Shown here: positions 24,112 to 30,497 of the stretch, in pieces | Layout of the letters: each line of letters begins with the position of its first letter | How positions within the stretch are numbered: position 1 is the first letter of the stretch | UHGV virus genome: UHGV-0076931 | Source: a virus | Length of the DNA stretch: 35,663 nt | Reading direction: 5' to 3' (one strand) | Notes under the pieces: generated by a model | What the model saw: the letters and a program-made list of their open reading frames with translations, nothing else | The model's database searches: none | Told to the model about the DNA's origin: nothing | Translations under genes and position numbers: made by a program

Positions 24112-24127
24112 TGGGGCTGTCCTTTTT
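24101..24127. terminator. Bidirectional intrinsic terminator between convergent Q and the 174-aa gene
   Basis: Stem cagcccc / ggggctg with 5-nt loop, flanked by aaaaaa upstream and ttttt downstream; includes the Q stop codon. Confidence 0.7.
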
Positions 24128-24650
24128 ACCAGAGTTGAACCATTTTCTGGGTGCCGTCAGGCTTGAGATTATCAATTTCAGAGAGAACGTAATATTGAAT
24201 GGCTTCACAAACGGTGGTGTATGGTGAATTACCTTCTTTAAGTGGCACGATATTATTATTAACGCGAACCTGTATTTCATCGTTATACATTGCGATCGAA
24301 AGAGGAGTATGCACGAACGCGACTTCGCCAGGTGTGTCGTCAACCACTGTCTCAATGCTGAAAATCAGTTTTCGCTCATCATTGCCGCCCCTTGCTTTGG
24401 GGGTAGCGGCAGGAATCTGAGATAAAGGCATTCTGCGAAACCCTTCAGTTGTTTCCAGTCCGCATGAAACGTAATGCTGGCGATTACCGTCGCTATCCGT
24501 CCATGTCTGTGATGGCAGCTCCAGAGAGATTTCATAAGCATCAACAATTCCCTGGGCAAGGTGTACAAGCGGGGTCAGATCTTCATTGCGGCGAAAACTT
24601 TCCTTTACCTGCTCTCGTTTTTCTCGTAACTGCTTGTAATTAATGACCAT
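24126..24650 (-). CDS. Hypothetical protein (174 aa), accessory gene next to portal
   Basis: Lower GC than flanking phage genes; start placed at ATG 24650 with GGAGG SD (ORF extends to 24689); no recognisable motifs. Confidence 0.6.
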   Translation of the reverse strand: MVINYKQLREKREQVKESFRRNEDLTPLVHLAQGIVDAYEISLELPSQTWTDSDGNRQHYVSCGLETTEGFRRMPLSQIPAATPKARGGNDERKLIFSIETVVDDTPGEVAFVHTPLSIAMYNDEIQVRVNNNIVPLKEGNSPYTTVCEAIQYYVLSEIDNLKPDGTQKMVQLW

Positions 24651-25149
24651 AAAACAGCCTCCATTGATTTCTTTGCTCGTATTTTGCACTTATGAAGTGT
24701 GGTCGGCAAGGTGCCGCATCACTGACGCGCTTCGCTTGTCTGCTGCTTCGCCGAGGCATAAAAAATTTATGCCCCGACTCTCCAGCTCCTGTATCAATCA
24801 GATAATTTCACGACGTCTTCCGACTTATCGCTATCATCGACAGTCAGGCTCTTACGCAATCCCGCCGCGCTGACTGCATGTTCTCGCCGCCTCAGTGCGA
24901 TTTTAATGGCCTTACCTTTCATCCCATCAAATCAGAACCCCTTACGTCTTTTTCACGTTCAGTGTGAGCGATACAGCCATTCTGTTGTGTCGCTGCGACA
25001 TCGTTCAGGGAATGCTATTTACCCCCTGAAACGCGGGCTGTTCCCCCGTCACCTGCGCGCAGAAAAAGCGCGTTTTTTTGTGCACGCACGGATCCTTGAC
25101 GGATCCAACCGCCATGCGGGCCGGAAGGGTAAAAAGTCGTTCAAAAAAA

Positions 25150-25216: not shown

Positions 25217-25477
25217 CTATAGCTTTGATGCAGGTTGGGCTAGATGTAATGGTTGGACATACCAGCCTTTTGATAACCAACTCTCTGCAACCTCTTTACT
25301 CCTTGTTATTGCTGGTATTCCGATGCCGTTATTTACATGCATCCATGCTACTGGCTCTGCTTCCAGCGATGCCAGAGCAATTTCATAAGCACGGCGTTCA
25401 ATATTGTCTCTCACGTCTAGGCTGCCTATGCGCTCTTTGATTTCTTTAATCATTTCTTTGTCGGTTAAAGTGGTCAT
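25217..25477 (-). CDS. Hypothetical protein (86 aa)
   Basis: ORF in tight operon arrangement; no recognisable motifs. Confidence 0.5.
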   Translation of the reverse strand: MTTLTDKEMIKEIKERIGSLDVRDNIERRAYEIALASLEAEPVAWMHVNNGIGIPAITRSKEVAESWLSKGWYVQPLHLAQPASKL

Positions 25478-25615: not shown

Positions 25616-25930
25616 TCACTCTCCTTTGATGCCAGTGTTTACAACCTGACAAGCCTCTTTGAGCACCCAGTCAATAGCATCTTTCCATGCTCCGGTTTCG
25701 GCTGGCGGATTCTCACGCTTTACCAGTTCATAGAAACGTACTGCTCTAACCAGTCCATCTGACGGTTTTGCCTGTAGTGCAGCCTGAGCTATGCGGTATG
25801 CCTGGAGTATACGGGCGTCGTTGATATCCATTCCGAACGGAATTTCTGATGATTGTGATTCTGCATCTTCAAGCCTGGCAATTTCTTTACGTAAAAAGTA
25901 TTTCAACTCTTGTTTTTGTTTTCTGTTCAT
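25616..25930 (-). CDS. Hypothetical protein (104 aa)
   Basis: ORF with 4-nt overlap to the upstream gene; no recognisable motifs. Confidence 0.55.
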
Positions 25931-26259
25931 GCGTTTTTTTCCTTTTTGTCTGTCACTTCTTTCCTGATAATTTCATTGCACAAATCCACGCACTCATTGC
26001 AGATGTAAACAGACGGTCCGGCAATCACCTTTGTGACTTCGTACTGGGATTTATTGCAGAAACTGCAATAAACCGTCTTCTCGCCTGAAGTCCATGTTTT
26101 GCTGGTTTCGCCAGACATCAGTTGTTTGAGGTCTTTTTCACGACGAAGAACTATCTGGCCACATTCAGCTATTTTTTGGATGTTGACATTTTCTTCTTTC
26201 GCCAGCGCTTCCATCCGCTCAATCAGTCGCTGCGCTTTTTCTCTGTCAATGTGTTGCAT
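25927..26259 (-). CDS. Small protein with ClpX-type C4 zinc-finger domain (110 aa)
   Basis: C-terminal half [34 protein letters not shown] closely resembles the N-terminal zinc-binding domain of ClpX; no AAA+ domain; AAGGGGGA SD. Confidence 0.7.
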
Positions 26260-26322
26260 TGTGTCCCCCTTGTTTATGCTCCCGGGTTAAAGTCATCAGG
26301 GCGGATGCGCCCTGATGTTGTG

Positions 26323-26634
26323 TTATTCGGGAAATAACGCCCGGATATTTCCGGCCATCTGACTGGTTATCTGTGCGGTTGATACTGGCTGTGACGCGGG
26401 GCGTTCTGTCCTGGTTTGTGGCACTGATAACGCCTCATCATCAGCCCATGCAGCCAGTCGGTAAGCCTCTGCCGGATTCATTTTCAGTAGTGCCAGCCCG
26501 GCCAGAAAAGCCACGCGTTGGCCGCTTTTGCGGGCTTCTGGTGTAAGGCTGTCCAGCCAGGCGCATGCTTCGCCTTCGTTCTTGACGGCGGCGGGCTTCA
26601 GATAGAAACTTATCCGTCTGGTTGGTGTTGTCAT
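26323..26634 (-). CDS. parR: ParR-like partition adaptor / repressor
   Basis: Start at ATG 26634 with AAGGAG SD, 4 nt after the parM stop; RISFYLKP...LAGLALL...NIRALFPE pattern as I recall it from R1 ParR. Confidence 0.65.
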   Translation of the reverse strand: MTTPTRRISFYLKPAAVKNEGEACAWLDSLTPEARKSGQRVAFLAGLALLKMNPAEAYRLAAWADDEALSVPQTRTERPASQPVSTAQITSQMAGNIRALFPE

Positions 26635-26638
26635 TGGT

Positions 26639-27598
26639 TTACTCCTTGTCCATTGCGTACAGCCCATTAACCAGAGCAAACTGTGGCACCCCGTCCGCGA
26701 TGAAAGTCGCATTAACTCCGCAGGCTTCGCGGATAGCGGGTGCCACAATCTCCGCCCCTCCACCGACAACCATCGCCCGCCCGTAACCCGAAAAACCCGC
26801 CAGCGCGCGGATCACGCGTTGTTTCAGTGTTTCTTCCTTTTCACGAATAACAGCCATCAGGCTGTCGTAATGCGCGTCATTGTGGATGTGCTGGCGCAGC
26901 CAGGCTTCATCATGGCGATGTTCGATAATGGTATTGGCGATATGGTGACTGGTGCGCATACCGTTAGTGGCCATCACCGACAGTACGGCATCGGCCATCA
27001 GGGAAACGCCTACGTGTGGATCGCAAAACACCTGGCTGATACCTGCCAGTTGCCCCTGAACCTTTGCCACATCCAGCGTGGTTCCGCCCAAATCCACAAT
27101 CAGCAGGGATTCAAACGGACTCATGTCAGCCAGTGCTTTAAAGCCAGCCGGAATGGATTCAGGCATAACCCGCACGTTACGGATAGTGAATGCTTCGCCG
27201 TTCTGGTACTCCACCGGGCGCATAACGTTCGCTTTTTTGCGGTTGATGTTGGCCATGTCCGGCTGTGCGTTTGTGTCGAAATACTCGCTCAGTGGCAGGG
27301 TGACAACCACATCCACCTCCTGTGGCGTGATGCCTGATTTGACCAGCGCGTGATGAATGGCAATTACATTCACATCGCTGTACTGGTATTGCGTGTCGGT
27401 CGTCTGGACAAAGCGATCGCTGACCGGATCAAAACCATAGCGCACGCCATCAAGCATGTAGTTTGCGGGCTGCGTGCCACCGAACGGCGCAGACCATTCC
27501 GACTTGAAGCTGTTCGGGCTGATGGCGTTGCGGCGTTCTCCGTTCTCAGTCCATGCCAGCTTGATGTTGGTGGAGCCGTCATCGATACAAATTTTCAT
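26639..27598 (-). CDS. parM: ParM (StbA) actin-like plasmid segregation ATPase
   Basis: Collinear match to R1 ParM blocks: IDDGSTNIKL, ISPNSFK, YSDVNVIAIHHAL, VMPESIPAGF, DLGGTTLD, GGGAE, LVNGLY. Confidence 0.88.
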   Translation of the reverse strand: MKICIDDGSTNIKLAWTENGERRNAISPNSFKSEWSAPFGGTQPANYMLDGVRYGFDPVSDRFVQTTDTQYQYSDVNVIAIHHALVKSGITPQEVDVVVTLPLSEYFDTNAQPDMANINRKKANVMRPVEYQNGEAFTIRNVRVMPESIPAGFKALADMSPFESLLIVDLGGTTLDVAKVQGQLAGISQVFCDPHVGVSLMADAVLSVMATNGMRTSHHIANTIIEHRHDEAWLRQHIHNDAHYDSLMAVIREKEETLKQRVIRALAGFSGYGRAMVVGGGAEIVAPAIREACGVNATFIADGVPQFALVNGLYAMDKE

Positions 27599-27628
27599 GT
27601 CGCTTTTCCTTATGTTGATTAATTAATC

Positions 27629-27738
27629 GTTTACGGGATTCTGAAATCCCGTTTTTGCCTGTTTTATGCGCGCTTCATATATCGCGGCGCGTTTTTTGCT
27701 CATTTACGGGATTTGTGAATCCCGTTTCTGTCTGTTTT
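27629..27738. repeat. parC-like site: two copies of a ~36-bp element each containing palindrome ACGGGATT-N4-AATCCCGT
   Basis: Copies at 27629-27665 and 27701-27738, directly upstream of parM; the second lies in the 3' end of the A reading frame. Confidence 0.5.
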
Positions 27739-30497
27739 TTGTTTCCACTGGTCAGGCCACCCCGCAGCAGGTCTGCTTTGCGGCGGGCGCGTTCAGTGGT
27801 TTCACTGATTCTCTGTGCGTGCTCTGCGTCGCGGATGGCGCGCAGCATGTCAGAAAGCACGGTAACGGGTGTTTTCATGGTGTTCTGGTCTTGCTGAAGT
27901 GTGGATGCCAGGCGTGCGGCGGCTTCGGGGTCTGATGCCCCCAGCTGTTCCAGATAGCTGGCGACCGGGTTATGGCGGATCTCCGTGCTGCTTACGCCGT
28001 GGTTACGGCTCAGGCGCTGCCAGAGCTGCGTGATCCGGCTGTCCGGGCGGGTATCCGGTTTGCGTACAATTTCAAATCCCTGCGGTGCAATGATGCTGCC
28101 GTCAACGTACAGACTGCCGCCCCGTAACAGGTGCTGCATCTGCTGTTCACCAATATGCAGGCCGAGAGATTCAGCAGACTCCCGCCATTCTTTAGCGAGT
28201 AATTCGTGGTTATCAGGCAAAGGCCGCAGCTGTTTGCGGCTCTGTGTCCAGCTCTGCATTTCATCACTGCTGTTTTTTGCCTGTTTGTCACGAAGCGAAC
28301 GCATCAGCGCCCGGCGTTCGTGCCGTTTCAGTGAGCGCATCCATTCGTTCACTTCAACGCCGTCAGGGAGCTGCGGCCACGGTGCTGGCCGTTCTTCCGG
28401 CTGTTCTGTCCCGTTGTTGTCCGTTTCCTGTACACGGGGACAGTTATTGCCACGAGTCCAAGGGGCGGCAGGGCCGCCCTGAAGGTCAAAACCATTTTCG
28501 TGGGCGTTGTCTTCTGGTTCTGGTTTACGTCTTACCAATTTCCAGTTATCCGGATGCGTGCACACACGGGAGGATTCCCCGATGAGTGGTGACCAGATCC
28601 CGTAAATCTGTACGCTCTGTTCGCCGTAATCGTTCAGCTCATCTGCGAGGTCGTAGGCGGTGCGAATCAGGTAGTCCTTGCGTGGAACAAGCACGCCACC
28701 CTGTTTTTCAATGTAGGTGGCAAAACACCCGGCATCGGCGGCAGCGAGTACCGCATCCATTGCATCATCTTTCAGCCGTTGCGGGCCTTCCGGATTGCGT
28801 GCCATCTGGCTGGCAAGGCGGCGCAGTTCACGCCACACCTGACGGGAGGGGATGCCAAAGAACTGGAACTGACGGACCCGGTGAAGGCGCGCCCAGCCGA
28901 TGGCGCGCTCCACGCTCTCGGCCATTGATTTTCCGGTTTCGTGGTCAACGCGTGGCTTGCCCGTTTTCGGGTCGATGCCATCCACGGCGCGGCTGTCCAG
29001 GTTCTTTCCGATGTAGGTGGCGATGTAGCTGGTTGGTGTGCCTTTTGAGCCGTCGACATACTCCGCCTTAAAACGCGGAGTTATGTCATCGCCCAGCTCG
29101 TGGCGGTCCTCCTGAATGGCAATATCGCAGACGTGGGACACGATGGTTTCAATCTCGTCCGGATGTGCAAAGACCATCATATGCCAGTGCACAGTGCCGT
29201 CATGGTGAGGCTCCACCGTGCGGATGCCATACCAGCGCAGGCCGTCGCGGTTCAGTTTTTTGCGGACCGCCGCAAAAAACGTGTTAACCAGGTAATCGCT
29301 GGAGTCGCGCATGGTGGCCCCGTTCCATTTGGGGTTCGGATGACCGTTCTCCGTTGTTGCGTGGTATTTTGACGGGCAGGTGACGGTCAGAAACACCGCT
29401 CTGTCGCCACGGGCTTCGGCCAGAAGTTCCAGTCCCTTCATGGTGGCCATCATTTCTGCCTTACGGTGAACCGGGTTACTTACTCCCGCGTAATACACCG
29501 TCTCGAGATCAATCGTGAACCCGTCTTCATTTTCCAGCATGAAACTTTTCAGGAAATCGCGTGTTTTCTCGCGCTGTGCGCGAAACTCGCTTAACGCGTC
29601 CTGGCTCAGATAGGGCGATGTTTTTCTGGAAACCAGACAGGCGGCGCGGAGTTGTTCTTCTCTCCACTCGCAACGTAACAGCCACAGTTTGCGTTTCCAC
29701 CATTCCGCACAGGTCAGGCGAAGGATTGCGCCCGGCAGCAGCTCCGTGTCCGGTTCGTTCCTCCGGTCTTTATCTGTTGTCAGTGCGTCATAATGTGGAG
29801 GCATGATGTGCAGGTGTAACGCCATGCGGGCCAGCATCTGATACGCCTTCAGCGTTACATCCATGGTCAGTTCGCCATCGGTCGCGCCAAAGCCATCGCA
29901 GAGTTTTTCGAAGGTGCTGCTGAACATCGCCGCCGTCATGGTGGCCAGCGTCTGTATCTGGTGTTTGTTGAGCTGCGGCAGGTAAAGCAAATCGTCCAGG
30001 CGTTCGCGTCCGGCAAGGGAGCGATAACCCGGTGTCAGCCAGCGTCCGTCAGTGCGATCCAGACGTTCGAATATTTTGCGTAGGGTTCCGCGTGCATAGC
30101 GTTCCGCCTGCCAGCTCTTTTTGCCTTTCCGGCGATCGGCTTCCTGTTTTTTGCGCAGGAAGGAGAGGTGGCGAATAAGCGGATCGCGCAGATAGGACGG
30201 CAGCAGGCGCAGCGAGGCCATGGCTTCATCCACCGCGTCGCGTGCCTGTTTTCTGGCGTCTCCTGCCAGTGTGATGGTTTTGTCCTGTTTTTCCTGTGCG
30301 TCCAGGCTTTTATTAATCAGGTTGCCCAGCGGCGTGGCGGAGAACGCCGCATCAGCCATTTCCTGGCGGCGCTCGTTCTCTACCCGGTAGGCATCCAGCC
30401 AGGAGGAAAGCGCGGATCCAGGAGCGGGGATCCCCGTTCCTTCACGCCCCACTGCGTGGCGCGGTTGTTGCCAGTCCCTGATGTACTCTGCCGTCAT
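27675..30497 (-). CDS. A: Replication initiation endonuclease A (rolling-circle, HUH type)
   Basis: 940 aa; HUH motif in HWHMMVF and paired tyrosines in YIATYIGK as in P2 gpA; longer than P2 A at the C-terminus. Confidence 0.9.
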   Translation of the reverse strand: MTAEYIRDWQQPRHAVGREGTGIPAPGSALSSWLDAYRVENERRQEMADAAFSATPLGNLINKSLDAQEKQDKTITLAGDARKQARDAVDEAMASLRLLPSYLRDPLIRHLSFLRKKQEADRRKGKKSWQAERYARGTLRKIFERLDRTDGRWLTPGYRSLAGRERLDDLLYLPQLNKHQIQTLATMTAAMFSSTFEKLCDGFGATDGELTMDVTLKAYQMLARMALHLHIMPPHYDALTTDKDRRNEPDTELLPGAILRLTCAEWWKRKLWLLRCEWREEQLRAACLVSRKTSPYLSQDALSEFRAQREKTRDFLKSFMLENEDGFTIDLETVYYAGVSNPVHRKAEMMATMKGLELLAEARGDRAVFLTVTCPSKYHATTENGHPNPKWNGATMRDSSDYLVNTFFAAVRKKLNRDGLRWYGIRTVEPHHDGTVHWHMMVFAHPDEIETIVSHVCDIAIQEDRHELGDDITPRFKAEYVDGSKGTPTSYIATYIGKNLDSRAVDGIDPKTGKPRVDHETGKSMAESVERAIGWARLHRVRQFQFFGIPSRQVWRELRRLASQMARNPEGPQRLKDDAMDAVLAAADAGCFATYIEKQGGVLVPRKDYLIRTAYDLADELNDYGEQSVQIYGIWSPLIGESSRVCTHPDNWKLVRRKPEPEDNAHENGFDLQGGPAAPWTRGNNCPRVQETDNNGTEQPEERPAPWPQLPDGVEVNEWMRSLKRHERRALMRSLRDKQAKNSSDEMQSWTQSRKQLRPLPDNHELLAKEWRESAESLGLHIGEQQMQHLLRGGSLYVDGSIIAPQGFEIVRKPDTRPDSRITQLWQRLSRNHGVSSTEIRHNPVASYLEQLGASDPEAAARLASTLQQDQNTMKTPVTVLSDMLRAIRDAEHAQRISETTERARRKADLLRGGLTSGNKKQTETGFTNPVNEQKTRRDI

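Follow-up and report, generated by a model that had tools for sequence, protein, structure and literature searches.

The ParMRC systems are the textbook prokaryotic 'mitotic spindle' and are regarded as a plasmid device. The locus described here lies in the virus genome UHGV-0076931, a stretch of 35,663 nucleotides (nt) which is referred to here as the window and which represents a P88-like (genus Xuanwuvirus) prophage of the P2 family from Escherichia coli. On its minus strand the window carries parM, encoding an actin-like ATPase, followed by parR, encoding an adaptor protein, and ahead of both a pair of palindromic repeats at the junction with the phage replication gene A. It is close to certain that these elements make up a bona fide, functional ParMR with a cognate site, while the odds on the specific role proposed for it are about even. 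The reading that is favoured here, by a small lean, is that of a functional R1-family type II (ParMRC) cassette which acts on circular genomes during replication. The cassette is now fixed in the replication gene block of a P2-like lineage that comprises P88/Xuanwuvirus and relatives in other Enterobacterales.

ParM and ParR of the R1 family

The parM gene (26639-27598, minus strand) encodes a 319 amino acid protein of the R1 ParM/StbA family, with matches to the Pfam entries StbA_N (PF06406, E 1.8e-82) and ParM C-terminal domain (PF21523, E 1.2e-67). The protein aligns end to end with R1 ParM (PDB 1mwk) at about 50% identity over residues 2-316 (E 4.8e-92), and all nucleotide-binding motifs are intact in this alignment (DDGSTNIK, MPESIPAG, DLGGTTLD and GGGAE), so that the phosphate-1, connect-1, phosphate-2 and adenosine classes that mark a type II partition ATPase are all represented. 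E147 and D169 of the phage protein correspond to E148 and D170 of R1 ParM, and the motifs are without variation in the 21 homologues aligned. This bears out the initial annotation, in which ParM had been regarded as recognisable block by block against its R1 counterpart. The gene is intact at 319 codons in 82 of the 83 P88-like loci, the remaining locus encoding a truncated protein of 182 amino acids, and the median ratio of non-synonymous to synonymous substitution rates (dN/dS) is 0.054 at a dS of about 0.08 (69 distinct alleles); parM is under strong purifying selection. In Escherichia phage 503458 (CP025874.1 / NC_049341.1) the parM match is split in four and annotated as several 'partition protein' fragments, which reflects either a frameshifted pseudogene or a sequencing error.

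The parR gene (26323-26634, minus strand) encodes a 103 amino acid adaptor that belongs to the Pfam family Plasmid_stab_B (PF10784, E 6.9e-24) and shares 33% of its N-terminal 61 amino acids with R1 ParR (BLASTP, E 2e-8; the R1 ParR sequence was taken from an R1-type locus, L115). Both matches confirm that the protein encoded after ParM is ParR-like, as had been proposed from the sequence. Its start is best taken as the ATG at 26634, four bases past the parM stop and with a GGAG 7 nt upstream; a longer, TTG-initiated open reading frame (ORF) that starts at 26769 need not be invoked. ParR consists of an N-terminal putative DNA-binding domain with the strand RRISFYLKP, a variable linker and a C-terminal tail ending in NIRALFPE. 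Compared with R1 ParR, which has 117 amino acids, the phage protein lacks the middle segment and shares the Pfam family, the N-terminal domain and an aligned C-terminal tail of the form K-x-N-A/I-x-x-L. An AlphaFold2 monomer model built on a 19-sequence alignment reaches a mean confidence (pLDDT, predicted local distance difference test) of 55 and shows two helices at residues 20-52, disorder at 62-85 and a C-terminal helix at 86-100, with no confident N-terminal strand. A sequence search of the PDB with ParR returned no match.

The alleles of ParR within E. coli range from 42% to 96% identity beside ParM proteins that are 98-99% identical, and the variation is concentrated in the linker. In alignments across alleles residues R6-P14 (RRISFYLKP) and residues N96, I97, F101 and P102 of the NIxxxFP tail are fixed while the linker drifts, and the ratio of non-synonymous to synonymous polymorphism (pN/pS) is accordingly lowest in the last 11 amino acids (0.04), low in residues 1-62 (0.14) and highest in the linker (0.57). 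The tail, N-I/A-x-x-L/F-F-P, shows no variation between alleles or genera, and the cross-genus C-terminal motif K/R-x-N-A/I-x-x-L-F-P lines up with the C-terminus of R1 ParR, KKNAMKLIN. The C-terminal peptide of R1 ParR docks into ParM (structure 4A62), and by the same token the phage tail would qualify as a ParM-binding peptide. Judged from these alignments, both of the ParR ends that a working ParMRC would need appear to be conserved. The parR gene is mosaic, with a breakpoint at about 26580 (codon ~18): many E. coli phages agree over the first ~18 codons and again over the last ~8, with differences of up to ~50% in the stretch between them (loci L003-L089). This breakpoint explains why some megablast matches cover positions 381-1601 of the query alone.

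Paired palindromes at the gene A-parM junction

Ahead of parM on the minus strand a 42-nt repeat occurs in two direct copies, a proximal one at 27627-27668 and a distal one at 27700-27741, which are 81% identical and spaced 73 base pairs (bp) from start to start. Each holds a perfect 8-N4-8 palindrome, ACGGGATT-N4-AATCCCGT, which reads ACGGGATTtcagAATCCCGT at 27633-27652 in the proximal copy and ACGGGATTcacaAATCCCGT at 27706-27725 in the distal copy, and the centre of the proximal palindrome is located 44.5 nt upstream of the parM ATG. Within the window no third match to the palindrome is present even with three mismatches allowed, where 0.08 matches are expected and two are reached in 1 of 100 shuffles. 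The initial annotation had described two ~36-bp elements with a central palindrome; the two copies stand and their palindromes are perfect, and the length of the unit has to be revised to 42 nt. It had overlooked that the distal repeat sits within the last 18 codons of gene A (stop 27675-27677), overlapping its final codons. The C-terminal tail of gene A is read through this distal site, and the same bases are both coding and part of a putative ParR site.

The repeats are best interpreted as putative parC-like ParR sites, the proximal one making up one half of such an element, and it is their conservation that points in this direction. The GGGA/TCCC cores are nearly fixed in 51 upstream variants, the exception being the last C of the proximal TCCC, which is a T in 24% of them. 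The palindromes are kept in the window, in Salmonella and in E. albertii, with variation in their loops and in the spacer. Although the flanking DNA cannot be aligned in Plesiomonas and Hafnia, exactly two GGG-N10-CCC elements are found there, at -131/-59 and -128/-55 from the parM ATG compared to -125/-52 in the window, with the offset retained and a spacing of 72-73 bp throughout. Such a pair was not found in the 230 nt upstream of parM at the other 76 ParM loci examined, of which three are phage loci of a Serratia/Enterobacter clade and the rest belong to plasmids or integrative and conjugative elements, and in shuffled sequences the probability of two or more GGG-N10-CCC elements is 0.0004-0.003 per region. 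In two recombinants within the gpA C-terminus similarity resumes just upstream of the distal repeat, which indicates that the distal repeat travels with parM and not with gpA. The possibility that the repeats serve as the origin of gene A was rejected on the same ground, because the unit stays with parM in these recombinants, and also because in Hafnia an ORF of 167 amino acids parts gene A from the sites, yet the distance between the sites and parM is kept.

Sites of this kind could also be explained if the cassette were a decaying, functionless relic of phage-plasmid recombination and its palindromes RNA hairpins or terminators, a reading that is highly improbable. In its favour, the module clearly derives from plasmid ParMR clades and the palindromes are terminator-like on the plus strand. 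However, all genes within 3.5 kb run antisense to the plus strand, and the hairpins formed on the sense strand have no U-tract; terminator scores were obtained on the antisense strand alone (scan of 25800-28200) and the palindromes were consequently rejected as terminators. A search of Rfam with 26100-27900 at E<=1 gave no match. Plesiomonas and Hafnia keep only the outer GGG...CCC with the inner stem gone, and changes in the arms within E. coli are non-compensatory, a pattern which favours a protein-binding site over an RNA stem. Neither the low dN/dS and the 82 of 83 intact ORFs of parM nor the cross-genus synteny, which is kept at 53-62% protein identity, is in agreement with decay.

At the level of the site itself the phage element shows both likenesses and differences to R1/NR1 ParMRC (parA / stbAB). 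The order of repeats, parM and parR is the same, and the phage repeats hold an A-A/T-CCC core like the R1 iterons, which in the R1-type parC of locus L115 are 11-bp units of the AAACCCA type on both sides of a promoter. These iterons are resembled by the right half-sites in the phage (AAATCCC; GAAACCCAAAAAC in Hafnia), and the half-sites of a palindrome look like an inverted pair of them. The phage has two inverted-repeat sites 73 bp apart whereas R1 has ten direct 11-bp iterons that flank the promoter, and the phage locus is without a recognisable promoter and has its distal site overlapping the preceding gene. In terms of layout the phage element resembles a reduced parC, with two half-sites on either side of a core where R1 parC has five iterons on either side.

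The spacer between the repeats (27653-27699, minus strand) contains the gene A stop and a dyad that is GC-rich and variable. A further conserved motif, TTAATCAA (27615-27622, minus strand), separates the proximal site from the ribosome-binding site of parM (AAGGA, 27607-27611) and is located about 17-24 nt upstream of the parM start; it also occurs at this place in Plesiomonas (L083, ~5975-5982) and Hafnia (L084, ~5977-5984) within unalignable surroundings, and is a poor fit to a -10 element and to the consensus of integration host factor. Site variants in E. coli show no association with ParR allele families and the same cores are found beside both families, which is expected as the N-terminal strand RRISFYLKP is invariant. 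In the Serratia/Enterobacter clade (L086, L090 and L167) the cis element differs and consists of 14-19-nt inverted arms (GGGAACGAAATAGAAAAAT / ATTTTTCTATTTC...) together with GCCGTTTAAACGGC, a perfect palindrome which precedes parM by about 40 nt. Here the N-terminus of ParR reads NRKISFYL instead of TRRISFYL, so that the cis element appears to change together with the adaptor at deep divergence.

A backbone cassette of integrating phages

The window also encodes a tyrosine integrase, Cox, a helix-turn-helix repressor, a P2 capsid protein and a portal protein, and together with the Phage_GPA match of gene A these agree with the integrase-carrying, P2-like setting that had been described for the module. 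Its cassette region is 97-99% identical to phages P88, PhiR44_2, P884B11, Shae_phiSM and others, and a prophage that lies beside pdxB in the chromosome of an ovine E. coli is 99.9% identical to the window. Among 50,697 phage records an R1-type ParM is limited to 14 P88-like phages and the plasmid-prophage D6 (47.5% identity), and parM is present in exactly the 14 records that have a P88-type gene A (>=80% of its length). The earlier statement that type II partition systems are untypical of P2 phages thus holds for P2 in the strict sense; what has to be modified is the notion of an oddity, as the cassette is not peculiar to one phage and represents a fixed backbone pair of a P2-like lineage. 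Within complete E. coli genomes the cassette is found in 1308 of 5426 (~24%).

P2-like prophages of Plesiomonas (L083), Hafnia (L084), Serratia (L086, L090) and Enterobacter ludwigii (L167) encode ParM homologues that are 53-62% identical, downstream of gene A and ahead of the cargo or portal genes, and in each of them a PF10784 protein is encoded next; in Hafnia and Enterobacter one or two small ORFs are located between gene A and parM. All loci with a ParM below this range of identity are without gene A; of the two whose context was inspected, one is a conjugative element and the other an integrated plasmid. The phage-linked ParMs fall into two clades in a neighbour-joining tree, one of Escherichia, Salmonella, Plesiomonas and Hafnia and one of Serratia and Enterobacter, each of which is recovered in 60 of 60 bootstraps. 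The two clades unite in 37 of 60 replicates. They are nested within plasmid ParMs, that of R1 among them, which would imply that parM was captured from plasmids once or twice, long ago, and has since been inherited vertically with the phage over a long time. Sequence of the E. coli type also occurs in records of Gram-positive organisms, namely Vagococcus sp. (L089), uncultured Clostridiales (L114), Streptomyces morookaense (L116), a Lachnospiraceae metagenome-assembled genome (L135) and Micromonospora sp. (L166). These records hold either a 97% identical P88-like phage region or an R1-type or other enterobacterial-type ParM on short contigs, and are most likely the result of assembly contamination.

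An episomal stage had been proposed in the initial annotation on the ground that type II partition systems are typical of plasmids. In such a case the cassette would stabilise an unintegrated, plasmid-like form of the phage before integration, in hosts with no free attachment site or in a carrier state, as in D6, P1 and N15. Besides the plasmid type of the module, two observations speak for this: the phage-plasmid D6 has a ParM which is 47.5% identical, and a circular 34,461-bp 'plasmid' record turns out to be a whole P88-like genome. However, of the 1456 places at which the cassette occurs in complete E. coli genomes, 1454 are chromosomal and two are on plasmids. The matches in the plasmid database PLSDB comprise one circular phage-sized record, one linear contig ridden with the insertion sequence IS1, namely the Shigella 'plasmid', and large replicons with an integrated copy. 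When 13.6 kb of the circular record were compared with an integrated prophage of another strain, the two proved to be 99.9% identical. The published description of P88 is that of an integrated prophage with attL and attR sites that is induced by mitomycin C (PMC5285337). The integrase, Cox and repressor genes and the chromosomal position of the near-identical genome next to pdxB set the phage apart from the plasmid-prophages, in which a phage genome likewise carries a plasmid partition cassette (StbA-type in D6, ParAB-type in P1, P7 and N15) and which are maintained by plasmid replicons. No plasmid-type replicon was found in the window, where the sole replication gene found is the P2-type gene A. 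Its rolling-circle replication belongs to a repressed early operon, and segregation without replication cannot keep an episome. A stable episomal stage has little support from these data and is improbable, and it is unlikely that the cassette maintains a plasmid prophage.

The circular record, NZ_CP148288.1 (L001), was deposited as a plasmid of E. coli Z1323PEC0009 and contains the complete P88-like genome including the integrase. The chromosome of strain Z1323HEC0067 (NZ_CP148378.1) carries the near-identical copy in integrated form, and the circle could be an excised replicative form that was caught by the assembly.

Expression, putative role and neighbourhood

The upstream neighbour of parM, gene A (27675-30497, minus strand), encodes a replication endonuclease of 940 amino acids (Phage_GPA, PF05840, E 5e-130), which is longer than the 785-907 amino acids of its counterparts in related ParM-carrying prophages. 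A scan for minus-strand terminators between gene A and parM (27598-27760) and one for sigma-70 promoters in the same interval, spacer included (scan of 25800-28200), gave no prediction, both scans being crude. Since the cassette comes straight after gene A, in the same orientation and with neither a terminator nor a promoter detected in between, its proteins are most likely produced along with those for replication once the phage has infected a cell or been induced.

P2 replication yields monomeric double-stranded circles which are the substrate for packaging. Circles of this kind are plasmid-like and would be substrates that a ParMRC can handle. It is proposed that ParR dimers bind to the two GGG-N10-CCC palindromes at the gene A-parM junction, which would present themselves on the same face of the DNA given that 73 bp correspond to seven helical turns. 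The conserved C-terminal tail of ParR would then capture the ends of ATP-ParM filaments, and the growing filaments would move or separate the DNA molecules that bear the sites. ParMR would thereby act on extrachromosomal circular phage genomes by positioning or dispersing them, and may in addition secure copies for both daughter cells. The broader proposition, that integrating rolling-circle P2-like phages use a minimal two-site ParMRC spindle in the replicative or establishment phase to position or distribute monomeric circles, is put forward more tentatively and falls somewhat short of even odds. R1 is a low-copy theta plasmid, whereas the carrier in this case is an integrating rolling-circle phage.

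The best functional analogy is provided by AlpC and AlpA of CGP3, an integrated prophage of Corynebacterium glutamicum, which are early gene products and without which circular phage DNA does not reach its full level (PMC4446434). As in the P88-like phages, a prophage encodes an actin-like ATPase and an adaptor; the adaptor of CGP3 binds to repeats upstream of the operon (alpS), and the CGP3 system acts on the excised circular phage DNA (PMC4446434, PMC5539076). The comparison is a functional one only and implies no close relationship in sequence. AlpC and AlpA fall outside the R1 ParM and PF10784 families, alpS consists of 24 short TTAAnnG repeats, the adaptor gene comes first and the phage is an unrelated one of a Gram-positive host. 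By analogy with AlpAC, and given the position of the genes, the 'repurposed actin-like system' that the initial annotation had offered as its second option would seem to fit better than a stable episome.

Several points weigh against a role in the handling of replicating circles. Since the promoter and terminator scans are crude, the cassette may have its own ParR-repressed promoter and hence be expressed in lysogens. The low-confidence model of ParR (pLDDT 55) leaves the ribbon-helix-helix fold a prediction that is based on the family. Two palindromes amount to four half-sites, compared with ten iterons in R1 parC, and may form a weak centromere or function mainly as an operator. There is no obvious gain from pushing copies apart in a cell that is due to lyse, and the selective advantage is conjectural. 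Experimental evidence for the phage lineage was not found in the searchable literature.

The number of sites leads to another alternative, in which ParR on the palindromes would be an operator-binding protein or a roadblock at the end of the early operon, or in which parMR would interfere with rival plasmids or phages by incompatibility or exclusion. Two sites only is an operator-like number, and R1 ParR is known to repress its own promoter within parC. The high diversity of ParR alleles beside a nearly invariant ParM, and the fact that the cassette abuts a hotspot where P2-like phages carry accessory genes, could likewise be expected of a conflict module. On the other hand, a pure repressor has no need for ParM or for the ParM-binding tail of ParR, both of which are under strong purifying selection, and neither the DNA-reading strand of ParR nor the cores of the sites diversify with the ParR alleles, so that there is no sign of a switch in specificity. 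The cassette is located on the conserved side of the hotspot border and, unlike the cargo, is fixed in the lineage; it is present in all 14 P88-type phages with the breakpoints downstream of parR, and ParM, ParR and five neighbouring cargo proteins gave no match to the defence models of PADLOC. The cassette is not part of the hotspot cargo or a defence system by these measures, and a regulatory or conflict role is considered doubtful. The preferred reading remains that of a ParMRC which acts on replicating circles.

The existence of the genes is not new, as they are annotated as ParM and partition protein in P88 and related GenBank/RefSeq records and correspond to PHROGs 691 and 2515. The paper on P88 makes no mention of the parMR module (PMC5285337), and no paper was found among open-access papers and bioRxiv preprints on these genes, the paired sites or their lineage-wide conservation. 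What the locus appears to represent is a close relative of R1 ParMRC in an unusual carrier and with a minimal, palindromic, putative centromere. This relative is a fixed, strongly selected backbone part of integrating P2-like phages and hence occurs in ~24% of complete E. coli chromosomes, so that a chromosomal gene annotated as 'plasmid segregation protein ParM' usually marks a P88-like prophage and not an integrated plasmid. If the cassette does act on replicating circles, a temperate phage that is common in enterobacteria would join CGP3 and the jumbo phages as a case of genome handling with the help of a cytoskeleton. In that event a type II partition system would for the first time be seen to have a part in the development of an integrating phage of Gram-negative hosts, and the sites would provide a natural 'minimal centromere' for ParR. 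The two-palindrome site would be a compact natural substrate to address how few ParR dimers are able to seed a ParM filament. Knock-outs are feasible because P88 is inducible and scarless prophage mutagenesis has been published. The module is unsurprising in mechanism, yet very widespread, clearly functional and open to experiment.

A GC-rich hairpin (26294-26317) with a perfect 10-bp stem, CATCAGGGCG-N4-CGCCCTGATG, closely follows the parR stop. Similarity among P88-like phages and plasmid records breaks at this hairpin (window 26297-26330, query 98-131), and as this is just past the parR stop, the variable cargo region starts after parR. From the alignments the hairpin appears to mark where the conserved backbone of A, parM and parR gives way to the variable cargo that reaches up to the portal gene, and it may be a recombination boundary or a terminator beside the cargo hotspot. 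The cargo includes an ORF of 187 amino acids (24126-24689, phrog_5091) and two minus-strand genes, for proteins of 104 (25616-25930) and 86 amino acids (25217-25477), which look like paralogues since both match phrog_660 from the N-terminus; neither has a match in Pfam or PADLOC. The first cargo gene after parR (25927-26259, minus strand) encodes a protein of 110 amino acids with a C-terminal ClpX-type C4 zinc finger (PF06689, E 6.8e-18) that is without the AAA+ module, and which could be a mimic of, or a competitor to, the ClpX N-domain in the docking of adaptors and substrates.

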